From: an uncultured Candidatus Saccharibacteria bacterium | Lineage (GTDB): Bacteria; Patescibacteriota; UBA1384; CAYGGE01 | Assembly: GCA_964349485.1 (NCBI GenBank) | Contig: CAYGGE010000002.1 | Span: 5,737 to 69,736 of the forward strand | Direction of reading: 5' to 3' | Length of the DNA: 64,000 bases | Part shown: piece after piece, positions 4,038 through 41,407 of the stretch | How the letters are laid out: the number at the start of each line of letters is the position of its first letter | Numbering within the stretch: position 1 is the stretch's first letter | Notes under the pieces: generated by a model | Seen by the model: the letters and a program-made list of their open reading frames with translations, nothing else | Told to the model about the DNA's origin: nothing | The model's database searches: none | Made by a program: the position numbers and the translations under genes

Positions 4038-4343
4038 TGTCTCATATGTCGGTTGTTCAACCCAAAAGGGGAGCAGAGGTGTTCCAATGCTCCCCCGAAG
4101 GTACCCTTGCATCGACCAATACAAAAGCATATACTAGGTTTATGCCTGTGATAGCTTCTACTCAATTCGACACGAGTTTCTAATGGGGCCACGAGTTCCT
4201 CGTAAACTCTGCGTACCGGTTGAGTGGGAGCTAGTCTCGGCAAAAGATATATTGTAATTCTCTCCATATCATTGTACTATACAAGAGTTGACTGGCTTGC
4301 CCGGGACGTGGGTAAGCTTTTTTCGAAAAAAAAGGGGTTCCAG

Positions 4344-4472
4344 ATGAAGTACGTCACCTCCGGTTGTCGGATCCACGAGAAGGCCTGTCGTCCCAGTTTG
4401 CCCACCGGCAAACAGCGAAAGGTCATCAAGCCCCCGATGGTCCGAAACAAGGATGGCGGCTACAAGAAGTAG
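4344..4472 (+). CDS. Mini-ORF (42 aa) weakly resembling the C-terminal TGKQR motif of ribosomal protein bL31. Possible remnant.
   Basis: MKYVTSGCRIHEKACRPSLPTGKQRKV... A GGCGGCACCGG/CCGGTGCCGCC hairpin follows at 4513-4538. Confidence 0.2.
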   Translation: MKYVTSGCRIHEKACRPSLPTGKQRKVIKPPMVRNKDGGYKK

Positions 4473-4550
4473 CGTGAAGGCCGAGTAACGGCCACACGTT
4501 CACAGCGTTAGGGGCGGCACCGGATACCCGGTGCCGCCTTACTCGTCAGG

Positions 4551-4579
4551 TTGACAAACAGTCTAAAAACTGCTATACT
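4551..4579 (+). promoter_or_regulatory. Sigma70-like promoter TTGACA-N17-TATACT upstream of the CAP-domain gene
   Basis: Read directly from the sequence. Confidence 0.5.
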
Positions 4580-4609
4580 TATTAGAGTAAACCCGAACAA
4601 AGAGCGAAT

Positions 4610-5266
4610 ATGATCCCGTGCCTAACCGGCAGGGGAATTTTTATATCGGAAATTACAAAAACTATGATCAACACTCAAACTCTACAATTTACCGACCAAC
4701 TGACGAAGATCCAGGAGAAAGCTCTGTTGGTGCTTTTAGTTATCCCGCTTGCCGTTTCGATCATTAACGCGACCTATTTAGTTCGTCCGGCCCAAGCTTT
4801 TGAAACGGCCAATCCTATTGAGGAACGACTGATTGACTTAACCAATGCCGAACGGGGACGTATTGGGCTACGAGCTTTAACCTTCAACTCAAAATTATCT
4901 ATCGCGGCCGAACAAAAGGCCACCGACATGTTAGCTAAGGGCTATTTCGATCACCAATCACCTGATGGCCGAGCACCTTGGGATTTCATTGAGAGTACTG
5001 GCTATATTTATCTCAAAGCTGGGGAGAACTTAGCCATCGACTTCCCGGAACTTAGTGAGGTTGTTCCTGCATGGATGGCTAGCCCAACCCACAAAGCCAA
5101 CATTGTCAAACCTGATTATGAAGAGATTGGTATTGCTCATGTACAAGGTAACTTTAATGGTCGCCAAACCACGGTTATTGTTCAAATGTTCGGTACCAAA
5201 CCAGTGACTACTGAGAAAGTGCTCAAAGCACTCGCTGAATCAATTAGTTCTCCCTTACCGTTCTAA
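4610..5266 (+). CDS. CAP/SCP (YkwD-like) domain secreted protein
   Basis: N-terminal hydrophobic segment. CAP motifs LTNAERGR...GYFDHQSPDG...GENLA...W.ASPTHKANI. Confidence 0.7.
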   Translation: MIPCLTGRGIFISEITKTMINTQTLQFTDQLTKIQEKALLVLLVIPLAVSIINATYLVRPAQAFETANPIEERLIDLTNAERGRIGLRALTFNSKLSIAAEQKATDMLAKGYFDHQSPDGRAPWDFIESTGYIYLKAGENLAIDFPELSEVVPAWMASPTHKANIVKPDYEEIGIAHVQGNFNGRQTTVIVQMFGTKPVTTEKVLKALAESISSPLPF

Positions 5267-5305
5267 CTGGTTGTACCTCGTAAGTTCTATGGTTACTAAC
5301 GAGAA

Positions 5306-5341
5306 AACCAGTTAACCAGACAACTAGTGAACTAGACAACC
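5306..5341 (+). repeat. Copy of a dispersed CTAG-containing intergenic motif (AACCAGACAACTAG / CTAGACAACC)
   Basis: Related copies at 8812-8865 and 45939-46001. Confidence 0.4.
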
Positions 5342-5387
5342 ACTCCCGGCTCTTTAAAATTACCCAATGTATCTATAGAATGGACTC

Positions 5388-6803
5388 ATGTCACTAACCT
5401 CTCTTGATCCCATTATCAATTTAGCCAAACGTCGTGGCTTTGTTTTCCCTTCCGCCGAGATTTATGGCGGGACTGGTGGAATTTGGGATTATGGGCCACT
5501 TGGGGTGTTACTCAAAAATAATATCAAAAATGAGTGGTGGAAAGCGGTGATACAGCGACGCTCGGATATGGTACCACTCGATTCGGCGATCATTACCAAG
5601 CACGATGTTCTCAAGGCCTCAGGTCATGTCGATACATTTACCGATCCTTTAGTAGAGTGCAAAAACTGCCACACGCGATACCGTGCTGATAAGCCACCGT
5701 TCGACTTGCCAGGCAATGTGTCTGAAAAAGATGTCGATGCAGTCGCAAAGATTACCAGTATCAATTGCCAGCACTGTGGTAAGAGCGTCTGGACGCCACC
5801 GCGTCGGTTTAACATGATGTTTAAAACGAACTTGGGACCAGTCGATAGTGAAGAGGCGATAGTCTATTTGCGACCGGAGACTGCTCAAGGGATATTCACC
5901 AATTTCAAAAATATCCTTGAAGTTAGCCGAAAGAAACTACCATTTGGTATCGCCCAGATCGGTAAGGCTTTTCGCAATGAGATCCAGACCGGGAACTTCA
6001 TCTTTCGAGACAGGGAATTTGAGCAGATGGAGATTGAGTATTTTGTGGCCCCTGAGGACTCGATACGGGCCCACGAGGCGTGGGTAGGGGAGAGGGAGAA
6101 CTGGTACCTAGATCTCGGTATGAAAAAAGACAACATTCGGATTCGCGAGCACGAGGAACATGAACGGGCCCATTATGCCAAATCAGCGTCGGATATAGAG
6201 TACAATTTCCCAGGCATTGGCTTCTCTGAACTCGAAGGTATCGCCAATCGGGGAGACTACGATCTCATGGCTCATCAGATGGCTTCAGGTAGAGAGATGA
6301 CCTATTTTGATGACACAACGGGCGATAAATTTGTGCCATACGTGATTGAACCGTCGGCTGGCTTAGATCGTGCCGTGTTAGCATTTCTTTGTGATGCATA
6401 TACCGAGTATCCGGATGGGCGGCAGGGGAGCTCGGAAAATTCGCCATCCGAAGTAGGTAATCCAAAAGATCAAAACGAATCCGAAACGGTACTTCATTTG
6501 CATCCTAAACTGGCTCCATATAAAGTCGCGATTCTTCCGCTCATGAAAAAAGAGGGCATGGCCGAGCTGGCTTTGTCGGTGGCCCAGGATTTACGTCAGT
6601 CATTTACAGTTACATATGACGAATCAGCCTCAATCGGGCGACGGTATAGGAGACAGGATGAGATTGGCACGCCCTGGTGTGTGACGATCGATTTTGATTC
6701 CCTTGCTGATCAGACGGTGACGATTCGTGATCGAGACACCATGGCTCAACGACGGGTGGCAATCAAAGAACTGGAAACAGTTATTCGTTCACTGTTGACT
6801 TGA
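5388..6803 (+). CDS. glyQS: Glycyl-tRNA synthetase (class II, GlyQS type)
   Basis: GGTGGIWDYGPLG, FRNEIQTGNFIFRDREFEQMEIEYF (motif 2) and a C-terminal anticodon-binding domain. Confidence 0.9.
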   Translation: MSLTSLDPIINLAKRRGFVFPSAEIYGGTGGIWDYGPLGVLLKNNIKNEWWKAVIQRRSDMVPLDSAIITKHDVLKASGHVDTFTDPLVECKNCHTRYRADKPPFDLPGNVSEKDVDAVAKITSINCQHCGKSVWTPPRRFNMMFKTNLGPVDSEEAIVYLRPETAQGIFTNFKNILEVSRKKLPFGIAQIGKAFRNEIQTGNFIFRDREFEQMEIEYFVAPEDSIRAHEAWVGERENWYLDLGMKKDNIRIREHEEHERAHYAKSASDIEYNFPGIGFSELEGIANRGDYDLMAHQMASGREMTYFDDTTGDKFVPYVIEPSAGLDRAVLAFLCDAYTEYPDGRQGSSENSPSEVGNPKDQNESETVLHLHPKLAPYKVAILPLMKKEGMAELALSVAQDLRQSFTVTYDESASIGRRYRRQDEIGTPWCVTIDFDSLADQTVTIRDRDTMAQRRVAIKELETVIRSLLT

Positions 6804-6830
6804 ATAATCAATAGAAATGTATGAAACGAC

Positions 6831-6859
6831 TTTACAATAGTCAGCCAATAGGCTATAAT
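6831..6859 (+). promoter_or_regulatory. Near-consensus sigma70 promoter TTTACA-N17-TATAAT immediately downstream of glyQS
   Basis: Read directly from the sequence. Confidence 0.45.
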
Positions 6860-6888
6860 CATCAACACATTCCCTAATTTGGGTCTGT

Positions 6889-6930
6889 CCAAGGGAGGTC
6901 CTGCGGAGGGTGTCTTCCTTGGTTTTTTTC
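6889..6930 (+). terminator. Hairpin CCAAGGGAGG...CTTCCTTGG followed by TTTTTTTCTT. It is either the glyQS terminator or a leader attenuator.
   Basis: Read directly from the sequence. Confidence 0.5.
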
Positions 6931-7340
6931 TTAGACGTCCAGCCTGTGACAAGGTTGGCCGGCGGGGTGTTGAGCTCGTATGCATCCGCTTGCGAACTGA
7001 GCTTCACCCAAGGCCCGCACCTGGGTAGGTTGAGAATTGCACACCCTTTAGCCGTACTCCGGGGTGTTGCAAGGTGTAAACCCCTAGGTGCGGGCACGCA
7101 TTGACGCCGTTCGTTCGATGCGCCTTCATTGAGCAAACTCATGATTAGGCGATTATGCCATCGAACGACGACGGACACGCACTGACGGTAATCGGTGCGT
7201 TACCCTGAAGATTCCAGCTTGTGCGCCCCTCGCCAGCGAGCAGGGTTGAAGCGCGGCAGTCGAGTCAACGGGGTCCGTTTTCGGATCAATTGATCCAAGC
7301 TTAGCGCTCGTGTCACTGACACGAGCGTTCTGCGTTTTTA
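6931..7340 (+). ncRNA. GC-rich, highly structured non-coding segment (candidate ~400 nt RNA, family unknown) ending in a strong intrinsic terminator
   Basis: No credible ORF. Several long complementary helices: GCCCGCACCT/AGGTGCGGGC, TCGTTCGATG/CATCGAACGA, ACGCAC/GTGCGT, CCCTG/CAGGG. A 10-bp perfect hairpin CGCTCGTGTC-ACT-GACACGAGCG is followed by TTCTGCGTTTTT at 7305-7340. Confidence 0.4.
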
Positions 7341-7354
7341 GTGGAGTTATCCCC

Positions 7355-7383
7355 TTGACGGTGGATGACTGGTGGGATATTAT
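7355..7383 (+). promoter_or_regulatory. mraZ/dcw operon promoter TTGACG-N17-TATTAT
   Basis: Read directly from the sequence. Confidence 0.55.
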
Positions 7384-7430
7384 TATCTTGTAGTGGAAGG
7401 AAGTGGGGAAAAGTGGAAGAGACTGTGGAT
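7361..7430 (+). promoter_or_regulatory. Array of GTGG(G/A)N direct repeats at ~10 bp periodicity. Putative MraZ operator.
   Basis: GTGGAT 7361, GTGGGA 7372, GTGGAA 7393, GTGGGG 7403, GTGGAA 7413, GTGGAT 7425. Confidence 0.45.
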
Positions 7431-7465
7431 AATATTACCTATCTATCTTGGAGTGATGAACAGCG

Positions 7466-7888
7466 ATGTTTATTGGTGAGTATACAAACAAGATTGACGA
7501 CAAAGGACGCTTGGCAGTCCCAGTTAAATTTCGCAGTGAACTCGCCAGTGGCGCAGTCATCACTCGAGGCTTAGACGGCTGTCTTTTTGTATACACTTTG
7601 AGCGAATGGCGTAAATTAACTGACAGTTTAACAAACCTATCATTGACTGCCGCCAATGCACGAGCCTTAAACCGACACATGTTAGCTGGAGCAATGGAGG
7701 TAACGCTCGATAAACAGGGTCGGGTTATCCTTCCGGGTAGTCTTCGTAAATCAGCTGGCATCGCAACCCAAGTAGTCGTTGCAGGTGTCATGAACCGTCT
7801 CGAGATCTGGGATGAGACGAAATGGCGAGAGTACCTAGAGAAAACAGAAGCCGAAAGTACACAAATCGCTGAACAAATTGTATTCTAG
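7466..7888 (+). CDS. mraZ: Transcriptional regulator MraZ
   Basis: MFIGEYTNKIDDKGRLAVP... The MraZ fold is duplicated. It is the first gene of the dcw cluster. Confidence 0.9.
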   Translation: MFIGEYTNKIDDKGRLAVPVKFRSELASGAVITRGLDGCLFVYTLSEWRKLTDSLTNLSLTAANARALNRHMLAGAMEVTLDKQGRVILPGSLRKSAGIATQVVVAGVMNRLEIWDETKWREYLEKTEAESTQIAEQIVF

Positions 7889-40113: not shown

Positions 40114-40210
40114 GATGAGACCTCCATTCTTGCACTTATTGCTTCTGTATGATACCATAGCAACGTCGTCAGTCGAAATTACTCTGTTTTGTATCAAGCA
40201 AGGAAACTAC

Positions 40211-40432
40211 ATGAAAATGCCAATTCTTACTTTCCGTGATTACTGTGTGATCTGCGGTAAAGGCCCACAAATGGGGCTCAACCGGCCGCACTCCTTAAAG
40301 AAGACCAAAAAAGTTATCCGACCAAACCTTGGGGTCTGGAACAACCTCAATATTTGCGCTTCCTGCCGAAAGAGCCTTTCCAAGCCCGAACATATTAAAA
40401 AAGTTCAGGTTAAAGAGCCAACCGCCAATTAA
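40211..40432 (+). CDS. rpmB: Ribosomal protein bL28
   Basis: CVICGKGPQMGLNRPHSLKKTKKVIRPNL...CASCRK. Confidence 0.7.
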   Translation: MKMPILTFRDYCVICGKGPQMGLNRPHSLKKTKKVIRPNLGVWNNLNICASCRKSLSKPEHIKKVQVKEPTAN

Positions 40433-40457
40433 TCTAGTTCATTAGAAAATCGGCAAC

Positions 40458-40487
40458 TAAAAAATCCCGTTTGCACGGGATTTTTTA
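40458..40487. terminator. Bidirectional intrinsic terminator AAAAAATCCCG-TTTGCA-CGGGATTTTTT
   Basis: Read directly from the sequence. Confidence 0.6.
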
Positions 40488-40502
40488 GTTTGAAAAGCCT
40501 GA

Positions 40503-40877
40503 TTACTCTTCAGAGGTGTTGCTGGTTGCAGCATCGTCAGAGACGGGAGCTGGTGTAGCGGCAGGAGCTTCGCCTCGGTCTGCAGCTTGCTTCTGTCGGA
40601 AACAGTCAGCACACAGAACGTTGCTAGGATCGCGGGGCTCGAAAGGCACTTCACCCTCTGCACCACAGTTGGCGCAGGTGATTTTGTGCATTGTTCGAGG
40701 ACCACGATTGTCCCGGCCACCGGCACCACCGGCTTGCTTCTGCTCTTTAATCTTGCGTCGGCAATCGGCACAGCGAATTGGAGCAGAGAAGCCCTTGGAG
40801 TTGTAAAACTCCTGTTCGGATGCGGTCCAGACAAAGTCTGTGCCACAATCACGACAGGTAAGCGTTTGGTCTTGCAT
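40503..40877 (-). CDS. Duplicated zinc-ribbon protein (two Cx2C...Cx2C modules) with an acidic Ala/Pro-rich tail
   Basis: TCRDCGTDF...CADCRRK and TCANCGAEG...CADCFRQK. Locally elevated GC. Confidence 0.5.
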   Translation of the reverse strand: MQDQTLTCRDCGTDFVWTASEQEFYNSKGFSAPIRCADCRRKIKEQKQAGGAGGRDNRGPRTMHKITCANCGAEGEVPFEPRDPSNVLCADCFRQKQAADRGEAPAATPAPVSDDAATSNTSEE

Positions 40878-41259
40878 GGTTCATTTCACCTATTTCGGTT
40901 TAGTACCACGGAGGAAAATTTTCCAGGGGGTAATAACCATTTGTCTAAGGGGACTCGACGCACCCTACGGATTTTCCTACGGGGTACCCTTACAATGCCT
41001 AGATTATAGCAGAATGAGTTAGAATAGTCAATCGGTTAGTTACTCCATTGACAAAAACGGATATTTCATGCAGTATATGTTACGAACGAGCCACTCTCGA
41101 ACAGTACTCGTTTTTTGACGGATCGTCCGTCAAAGCGGTTTCCATAATATAATGACTGTAAAAAGCATTCAAGGGCAGATCGCGCCAACGTTGCGCGTGA
41201 GGGTCTACATCTACTAACACCCCCCCTAATAACACCTCCCTAACGGGACTCTCGATCTT

Positions 41260-41297
41260 CTGGGCCGGCCATTTCTGTGGCCGGCCCAGCTTTTTTC
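41260..41297 (+). terminator. Very strong intrinsic terminator (12-bp GC stem CTGGGCCGGCCA/TGGCCGGCCCAG plus CTTTTTTC)
   Basis: Read directly from the sequence. Confidence 0.6.
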
Positions 41298-41407
41298 TGC
41301 GAGCGATACAATCCAGAGAACTGTCCCTAACTTAGTGCGTATTATAGTCATTGGTAAATGTTAAGTGTGGTATAGTGTTTACTACTATTCGAATTTAGGG
41401 AGCATAT

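Follow-up and report, generated by a model that had tools for sequence, protein, structure and literature searches.

A candidate structured RNA gene of narrow distribution between glyQS and mraZ in a probable patescibacterial genome

We describe a candidate RNA gene in the gap of 662 nucleotides (nt) between the stop codon of glyQS (6803) and the start of mraZ (7466) in a stretch of 64,000 nt from contig CAYGGE010000002.1, referred to here as the window and numbered from its first letter. The evidence tilts modestly towards a non-coding, highly structured RNA encoded on the plus strand, predicted to be transcribed, and belonging to a new, very narrow and probably patescibacterial family. Its conserved core (about 6934-7340) measures about 410 nt, which grows to about 475 nt if the predicted start near 6866 is taken as the 5' end. 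The core consists of two junction domains of several helices each (P2-P3-P4 and P6-P7-P8/9/10), three hairpins that stand apart from them (P1, P5 and P11) and a terminator, and it recurs in one related lineage, L084. Comparison of the two sequences shows that selection acts on the RNA fold, with helices kept by compensatory change and hairpin tips left free, and that it also acts on the sequence of two invariant junction regions.

The segment stands out in composition and in folding. Its G+C content is 0.555-0.585 over 6900-7299 compared with 0.43-0.49 in the flanks, in agreement with the enrichment described in a first-pass annotation of this DNA, and the fold energy of the plus strand over 6866-7340 is -219.4 kcal/mol, whereas dinucleotide shuffles give -169.3 +/- 6.6 kcal/mol (z -7.5, compared with z -5.5 on the minus strand). 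That annotation had named four complementary helices, three of which are present in the minimum-free-energy (MFE) fold: GCCCGCACCT/AGGTGCGGGC at 7013-7022/7086-7095, which extends to 13 base pairs (bp) at 7013-7025/7083-7095; TCGTTCGATG/CATCGAACGA at 7111-7120/7159-7168; and ACGCAC/GTGCGT, which forms part of a 9-bp helix at 7177-7185/7192-7200. The fourth, CCCTG/CAGGG, is missing from the MFE fold, and L084 has nothing equivalent. It had also been said that the region carries no credible open reading frame (ORF), and the coding tests concur: mechanical ORFs of 129 amino acids on the minus strand (6789-7178) and of 49 and 64 amino acids on the plus strand have no Pfam match, and a tblastn comparison of six-frame pieces with the gaps of relatives reveals no translated similarity.

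GlyQS and MraZ of L084 are 81% and 79% identical to those of the window, and four assemblies, each from a different sample, agree on the sequence of its gap except for one base in L199. The islands TGGCCGGCGG, ACGACGGAC, GGGGTCCGT, GATCnnnnGATC and TGCGTTT occur in both lineages in the same order, and folding between these anchors gives the same architecture on both sides. Covariance model R1, for which the window's 3' domain was the only source (7167-7340, structure assigned manually), matches L084 2327-2517 over its full length with 42.8 bits and E~5e-9. Standard pairs fill 98.9% of cells in this alignment, as opposed to 25-39% when the partners are slid by 1-3 columns, and 12 pairs are changed on both sides (three in P7, one in P11 and eight in or around the terminator stem). 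RNAalifold, run independently on the R1 alignment, returns P6, P7, P8, P11 and the terminator. For the 5' domain, a single-sequence model (R2) places L084 2090-2330 in the same register as the window, although default filters miss it; the case for this half rests on its collinearity with the 3' half, an 18-nt island and matching helices.

When the whole core is set in a manual register (P1, P2, P3, P5-P9 and P11), 54 pairs can be followed between the two lineages: 33 are unchanged, five are changed on one side, 16 are changed on both sides and none is broken. One caveat applies to L084, in which 3 nt at the base of P5 overlap the 3' strand of P2, making the four proximal P5 pairs and P2 mutually exclusive; the six distal P5 pairs, all of them compensatory, are untouched by the overlap. 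Four-fold degenerate sites of glyQS, mraZ and rsmH are 37% identical between the window and L084, which amounts to saturation, and the retained helices and invariant 10-nt strings thus reflect purifying selection. Because G-U pairs are present on the plus strand and A-C pairs are absent from every helix in both lineages, the strand is fixed as plus; the promoter and terminator are also found on that strand only. The hallmarks by which a new family would be recognised, namely collinear P1-P11 with the terminator and the strings TGGCCGGCGG, GACGACGGAC, GTTACCC, CGGGGTCCGT and GATCnnnnGATC, are found in these two lineages, the 5' half being marginal by score.

All elements of the core lie on the plus strand. 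The 5' domain (6934-7170) opens with hairpin P1 (6939-6945/6952-6958), in which three pairs are changed on both sides relative to L084. The conserved helix P2 (6960-6964/7105-7109) closes a three-way junction with P3/P3a (6965-7009), of which P3 is conserved and P3a variable, and with the long, variable hairpin P4 (7013-7025/7083-7095). Hairpin P5 (7111-7120/7159-7168), with six pairs changed on both sides, completes the domain, which also holds the invariant island TGGCCGGCGGnGnGTTGA. In the 3' domain (7167-7282), P6 (7171-7176/7273-7278, with a GA/UC extension at 7167-7168/7281-7282) is followed by hairpin P7 (7177-7185/7192-7200; the three compensatory pairs counted above), P8 (7203-7205/7270-7272), P9 (7210-7214/7262-7266, its pair counts taken from the manual register) and the variable P10 (7217-7260); the strings GACGACGGAC, GTTACCC and CGGGGTCCGT are invariant here. 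Beyond this domain lie hairpin P11 (7283-7296), which reads GGATC-AATT-GATCC in the window and AGATC-GCTC-GATCT in L084 (one compensatory pair, four invariant), and the intrinsic terminator (7303-7339), whose stem at 7303-7329 closes a 3-nt loop and runs into CTGCGTTTTT. Six of its stem pairs are changed on both sides relative to L084. The stem and U-run proposed earlier are retained, with a stem of 12 bp in place of 10 bp.

Sequence constraint is strongest in two regions: the base of P1 with P2 and the 5' strand of P3 (GUCCAG ... UGGCCGGCGGnGnGUUGA), and the P6-P7-P8 three-way junction (GACGACGGAC, GUUACCC, CGGGGUCCGU). P11 and the terminator flanks are likewise constrained. The hairpin tips, together with P3a, P4 and P10, by comparison differ wholly between the window and L084 in both sequence and length, yet still form hairpins. 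We propose that the invariant junctions would be the working parts of the molecule, where a protein, a ligand or small molecule, or another RNA would bind, and that the variable hairpins would be scaffolding. The molecule would act as an RNA, most likely in trans.

How the core might be synthesized depends on two elements upstream of it. A predicted sigma-70 promoter, TTTACA-N17-TATAAT (6831-6859, plus strand), sits between the glyQS stop codon and the core and matches the consensus at 11 of 12 positions in the promoter scan; the first-pass annotation had already called it near-consensus. It would start transcription near 6866. Between this promoter and the core lies a feature that had been overlooked, an intrinsic-terminator-like hairpin on the plus strand that we call T1 (6889-6929; stem 6889-6898/6913-6922, inner pairs 6899-6902/6907-6910, U7 at 6923-6929), of which the automatic terminator scan reported just a sub-hairpin. 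For glyQS in the window T1 is the sole terminator downstream, whereas relatives carry theirs at most 50 nt past the stop codon, and T1 probably doubles as the glyQS terminator. In L084, too, a long helix and UUUU directly precede GUCCAG and the core. Because the only good promoter is upstream of T1, synthesis of the core would need read-through of T1, beginning either at the 6831-6859 promoter or in glyQS. T1 may gate core synthesis; alternatively, T1 would simply be the glyQS terminator and the core a read-through product.

Several observations weigh against an independent RNA gene. Recognisable copies occur in two lineages only, and the covariation amounts to a single pairwise comparison in which the 3' alignment was fitted to model R1. 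In the 5' half, R2 finds L084 2090-2330 only with filters off, at 9.1 bits and E~0.09, a level at which noise scores similarly. Neither a loop nor a tertiary motif is conserved between the window and L084. The terminator-like T1 separates the predicted promoter from the core, the promoter scan of the window detects no promoter between the two, and L084 has no promoter of at least 9/12 upstream of its RNA and none equally good at the matching place. The neighbouring genes give no function, and no link is seen to MraZ boxes, glycine or tRNA-Gly. Finally, the segment is not conserved in most related genomes, and its loss in a close sister lineage shows that the RNA is dispensable.

This distribution emerges from a small clade. 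GlyQS defines 18 relatives at 67-81% identity, with nothing closer, and a GlyQS search of GTDB genomes (species representatives) returns nothing above 56% identity. We compared the glyQS-mraZ locus in nine further lineages. Synteny is kept throughout, even in relatives of about 50% identity, and gap lengths are 266 nt in L197, 455 nt in L201, 474 nt in L196, 643 nt in L087, 760 nt in L084 and 774 nt in L085. According to MAFFT and blastn comparisons of these gaps, the mraZ promoter/operator alone is conserved clade-wide, and the terminator tail TGCGTTT, kept in relatives, marks the right-hand edge of the variable region. An nhmmer search with the single RNA sequence against all loci examined recovers only the same genome, and R1, R2 and R3 (a two-sequence model of the window and L084), run also with filters off, find nothing convincing in relatives other than L084. 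The sole R1 match among 190 other loci (L063 3300-3461, minus strand, 20.8 bits) was rejected as generic hairpins without P8 and P11. A metagenome pattern scan on the mraZ operator yields mostly unrelated contigs and a few relatives of about 50% identity that do not carry the RNA. The first-pass annotation had staked its proposal on conservation in related genomes, and the answer is mixed: the RNA is conserved in L084 and absent from most of the others.

The clearest case of absence is L203, whose MraZ is 95% identical to that of L084, with 57% identity at four-fold sites, and whose sample also holds an L084-type contig. From TTGCGTTTA rightwards the two loci are 80% identical at the nucleotide level for 3.4 kb, and left of TTGCGTTTA their local alignment scores below shuffles. 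Neutral DNA at this divergence would still align, so the RNA has been lost or exchanged for other sequence, and the terminator tail marks the breakpoint; an R3 match in L203 (13.7 bits) was rejected as the shared terminator tail plus a local hairpin. The gap of L197 is "empty": apart from the mraZ promoter, it holds only the glyQS terminator. Its absence from sister lineages would make the candidate RNA accessory, not housekeeping.

As judged from these alignments, the glyQS-mraZ gap is a turnover hot spot. The measurable inserts of relatives are all unusually well folded (z -4 to -10), and promoter-like sites lie inside some of them (11/12 in L087, 10/12 in L085). In L195 a fatty-acid desaturase gene on the minus strand and a 68-amino-acid ORF stand between glyQS and mraZ (4456-5921), so the gap accepts insertions. 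L196 (4182-4655) and L201 (2704-3158), with GlyQS 86% identical, have another insert in common, in which the sequence beyond a conserved 5' block (TGAGCTGCTATTG ... GTGGCGG) is folded but divergent; a second fast-evolving RNA may occupy the site here. The gap of L085 (5411-6184) resembles two or three tandem small transcription units, with terminator-like hairpins and T-runs apparent by eye (the plus-strand scan is silent) and an internal 10/12 promoter at 5726-5754.

The neighbours of the candidate RNA are glyQS, mraZ and rsmH, and genes of the window include a type IV pilus ATPase, PBP1A and the dcw cluster. Because the nearest named MraZ proteins (59-66% identity) are those of Patescibacteria (Magasanikbacteria, Parcubacteria and Pacebacteria), with gene content in agreement, the host probably belongs to an uncultivated patescibacterial clade. 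The mraZ promoter TTGACG-N17-TATTAT (7355-7383, plus strand, from the promoter scan) is surrounded by GTGG repeats at 7361, 7372, 7393, 7403, 7413 and 7425, with a period of 10-12 nt. The block GTGGAAGGAAGTGGGGAAAAGTGGAAnnnnCTGTGGATAA within 7355-7432 is kept clade-wide and in relatives of about 50% identity, and the repeat block as a whole looks like an MraZ operator. Its last GTGG repeat, TGTGGATAA (7424-7432), at the same time matches the DnaA-box consensus perfectly. Among the remaining gaps of the window longer than 200 nt, a rough survey finds lower GC-richness and/or weaker folding, gaps holding tRNAs excepted. Three others fold better than mononucleotide shuffles, at 4268-4609 (z -5.1), 41010-41407 (z -6.3) and 40198-40586 (z -4.0), and are without an Rfam match.

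Two alternatives to an RNA gene deserve the most attention, each of which we consider unlikely. In the first, the folded segment would be a cis element of the glyQS-mraZ junction: a long structured 3' untranslated region made only by read-through from glyQS, which would work as a stability element or as an insulator shielding the MraZ-controlled dcw operon from glyQS transcription. The layout lends itself to this idea, with no terminator between the glyQS stop codon and T1 and no promoter between T1 and the core. In every relative, moreover, a terminator closes the insert immediately before the conserved mraZ promoter, and all inserts share the unusual degree of structure noted above. A single terminator nevertheless suffices in the 266-nt gap of L197, and the invariant 10-nt junction strings and internal compensatory changes exceed what an insulator needs. 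The 11/12 promoter at 6831-6859, too, favours separate transcription.

The second alternative, to which we give the same low credence, is a selfish or horizontally moved non-coding insertion, or the remnant of one, in a gap that is simply a hot spot, with the window and L084 sharing their cargo by chance. The patchy distribution, the sharp L084/L203 breakpoint at the terminator tail, the desaturase gene inserted at the same place in L195, the difference of inserts between lineages and a G+C content above the flanks are all consistent with such an origin. A mobile element proper, whether a miniature inverted-repeat transposable element or derived from an insertion sequence, was rejected: the candidate RNA is present as a single copy in the 64-kb window, blastn against phage and plasmid collections gives no match, viral contigs give none either, and no terminal inverted repeats, target duplication or mobility gene are seen. 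In the viral contigs, the pattern ACGACGGAC-N85-115-CGGGGTCCGT has five matches, all chance by R1, and a second pattern has none. Whatever the origin of the insertion, the compensatory changes still point to selection on its fold.

A third alternative, which we think quite improbable, would make the candidate RNA a relocated and expanded relative of a separate conserved element, element E. This non-coding element of about 125-135 nt lies about 1.5 kb upstream of glyQS in three lineages (L085 2535-2670, L196 1202-1336 and L087 2367-2504), between a minus-strand ORF of 116 amino acids and a CAP-domain gene, upstream of the latter. It is 93-97% identical across these lineages, whose GlyQS proteins are 76-80% identical, and includes a run of about 75 nt that is 100% identical. 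It is predicted to fold with UGUUCAGGCAAG/CUUGCCUGAACA as the closing helix and UUCGAACGA/UCGUUCGAG as a helix within it; neither Rfam (E<=10) nor viral contigs give a match, and it is probably an unclassified conserved small RNA. Six exact, collinear blocks (GCCGTTC, GATTATGCCAT, TCGAACGAC, ACGGACA, TAATCG and CCTGAA) link it to window 7106-7209 with a chain score of 45, compared with 26 +/- 6.6 for 1228 genomic windows, and the two elements look complementary in distribution: the window and L084 have the large RNA without E, and L085, L087 and L196 have E without the large RNA. The resemblance is a weak one, noticed post hoc; 7 of the 1228 genomic windows score as high (empirical p ~0.006), and an nhmmer search with a profile of E does not match the candidate RNA. 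None of the six blocks occurs in L084, the true homologue, whose chain score of 18 falls below that of shuffles. The longest of the blocks, GATTATGCCAT, sits where the window and L084 differ, and the complementary segments come in a different strand order.

That the segment is a chance GC-rich, foldable spacer with no function strikes us as very improbable: random GC-rich sequence does fold well and the comparison has just one comparator lineage, but the fold z of -7.5, the covariance-model match at E~5e-9 across saturated neutral sites and the 0 of 54 pairs broken speak against it.

Least credible of all is that the RNA belongs, in very divergent form, to a known family (RNase P, tmRNA, SRP, 6S, group I/II intron, T-box, OLE, GOLLD, ROOL, HEARO or raiA), an idea favoured by a size and GC-richness in the range of RNase P RNA and transfer-messenger RNA (tmRNA) and by the escape of Patescibacteria introns from standard annotation tools (PMC13011429), and opposed by every search described next. 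A cmscan search of the kind that the first-pass annotation had recommended, run on the whole window with the 4227 families of Rfam 15, reports only seven tRNAs elsewhere (gathering score; E<=0.05), and a permissive scan of 6700-7500 at E<=10 adds only SNORD21, symR, rdlD and PreQ1 at 13-22 bits, far below their cut-offs and thus noise. The inserts at relatives' loci have no Rfam match. Negative results from cmscan, ARAGORN and a search for hallmark motifs in both lineages uphold the earlier failure to match RNase P, tmRNA, SRP or 6S by eye, and the description of an unclassified, lineage-specific large non-coding RNA gains support from the lack of any Rfam match or coding signal and from the helices kept in L084.

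Individual families were rejected on specific grounds. RNase P RNA (type A/B) gives no match at E<=10, and its CR-I (GAGGAAAGUCC) and CR-V are absent from the window and L084 within 2-3 mismatches; it is also an essential RNA expected in relatives, yet the candidate RNA is absent at this locus in L203, L197, L085, L087, L196 and L201. For tmRNA, ARAGORN reports none, Rfam gives no match, and neither a T-loop nor a plus-strand CCACCA is present. Signal recognition particle (SRP) RNA and 6S RNA have no match at E<=10; the fold is multi-branched and not a rod, and no SRP domain IV motif occurs inside the RNA, the sole loose match falling in the mraZ operator. Group I and II introns likewise have no match at E<=10, with no tRNA halves flanking the RNA and no domain V motif. 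The more specific idea of a group I intron in a tRNA, raised by PMC13011429, meets the same lack of tRNA halves and of an Intron_gpI match, and a reading of the P3a hairpin (6972-7004; GAGC start, 3' bulge) as domain V is not conserved in L084 and has no Rfam match. A T-box has no Rfam match, the RNA lies downstream of glyQS, and T-box string look-alikes appear at 3 mismatches only; T1 read as part of a T-box is not conserved in L084 and again has no Rfam match. OLE, GOLLD, ROOL, HEARO and raiA give no match to their family models. The unpaired 5' and 3' ends of the RNA and its dispensability in sister lineages also fit poorly with a known family.

We thus return to a non-coding RNA gene as the preferred reading. 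A bolder version, possible but doubtful, would see in it a new class of large structured non-coding RNA in which the junctions form a specific binding or catalytic core and T1 switches synthesis, with the gap as a fast-turnover "RNA cassette" site whose structured RNAs differ from lineage to lineage and are possibly related to element E. Few bacterial structured RNAs exceed 300 nt apart from the housekeeping ones, and those that do have repeatedly proved to be ribozymes or ribonucleoprotein cores. Patescibacteria have tiny genomes with little spare DNA, so a selected, folded RNA of 400 nt is unlikely to be idle. The significance of the candidate RNA is limited by its occurrence in two lineages only. 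The site itself may be of wider interest: nearly every lineage has its own strongly folded insert in this one gap between conserved genes, with replacement even between very close relatives, and if these inserts are RNAs of related roles, the gap would offer a natural setting in which to study how structured RNAs rapidly arise and turn over.

Among known systems, the candidate RNA resembles bacterial RNase P RNA (RF00010, RF00011) in its similar length (350-450 nt), its GC-richness and its many helices, but it is without P4 strands and without pairing between its 5' and 3' ends, and it is not kept among close relatives. Like the mraW RNA motif (RF01746), a short actinobacterial motif found upstream of mraW/rsmH in an operon leader, it is a structured RNA beside the start of the dcw cluster; unlike that motif, it stops at a terminator before the mraZ promoter is reached, and cmscan does not match the two. 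By pure inference from the layout, its 5' end could also be likened to terminator-gated leaders, the platforms of riboswitches and attenuators, in which a strong hairpin and U-run (here T1) come no more than about 25 nt after the promoter. A competing pairing of UUCCCU (6870-6875) with AGGGAG (6892-6897) is possible on sequence grounds. In contrast to such leaders, there is no recognisable aptamer, the leader of about 60 nt is unconserved in L084, and the product downstream is an RNA and not an ORF.

The closest parallel is with the orphan large structured non-coding RNAs (OLE, GOLLD, ROOL, HEARO and raiA), which were reportedly found as GC-rich intergenic regions in the surveys of Breaker and Weinberg. 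The candidate RNA differs from these in that it is known in two lineages, is absent from sisters, and is without conserved loops or tertiary motifs, its conserved nucleotides being confined to two helical junctions. It shares with them a length of several hundred nucleotides, a multi-domain organisation, a terminator of its own and a position in a GC-rich gap of a lower-GC genome, as well as the lack of coding potential, a fold kept by compensatory change and no assigned function. We therefore regard it as a candidate new family of this known general kind, a lead and not a discovery, whose multi-domain fold and GC-rich setting place it beside OLE and its counterparts.

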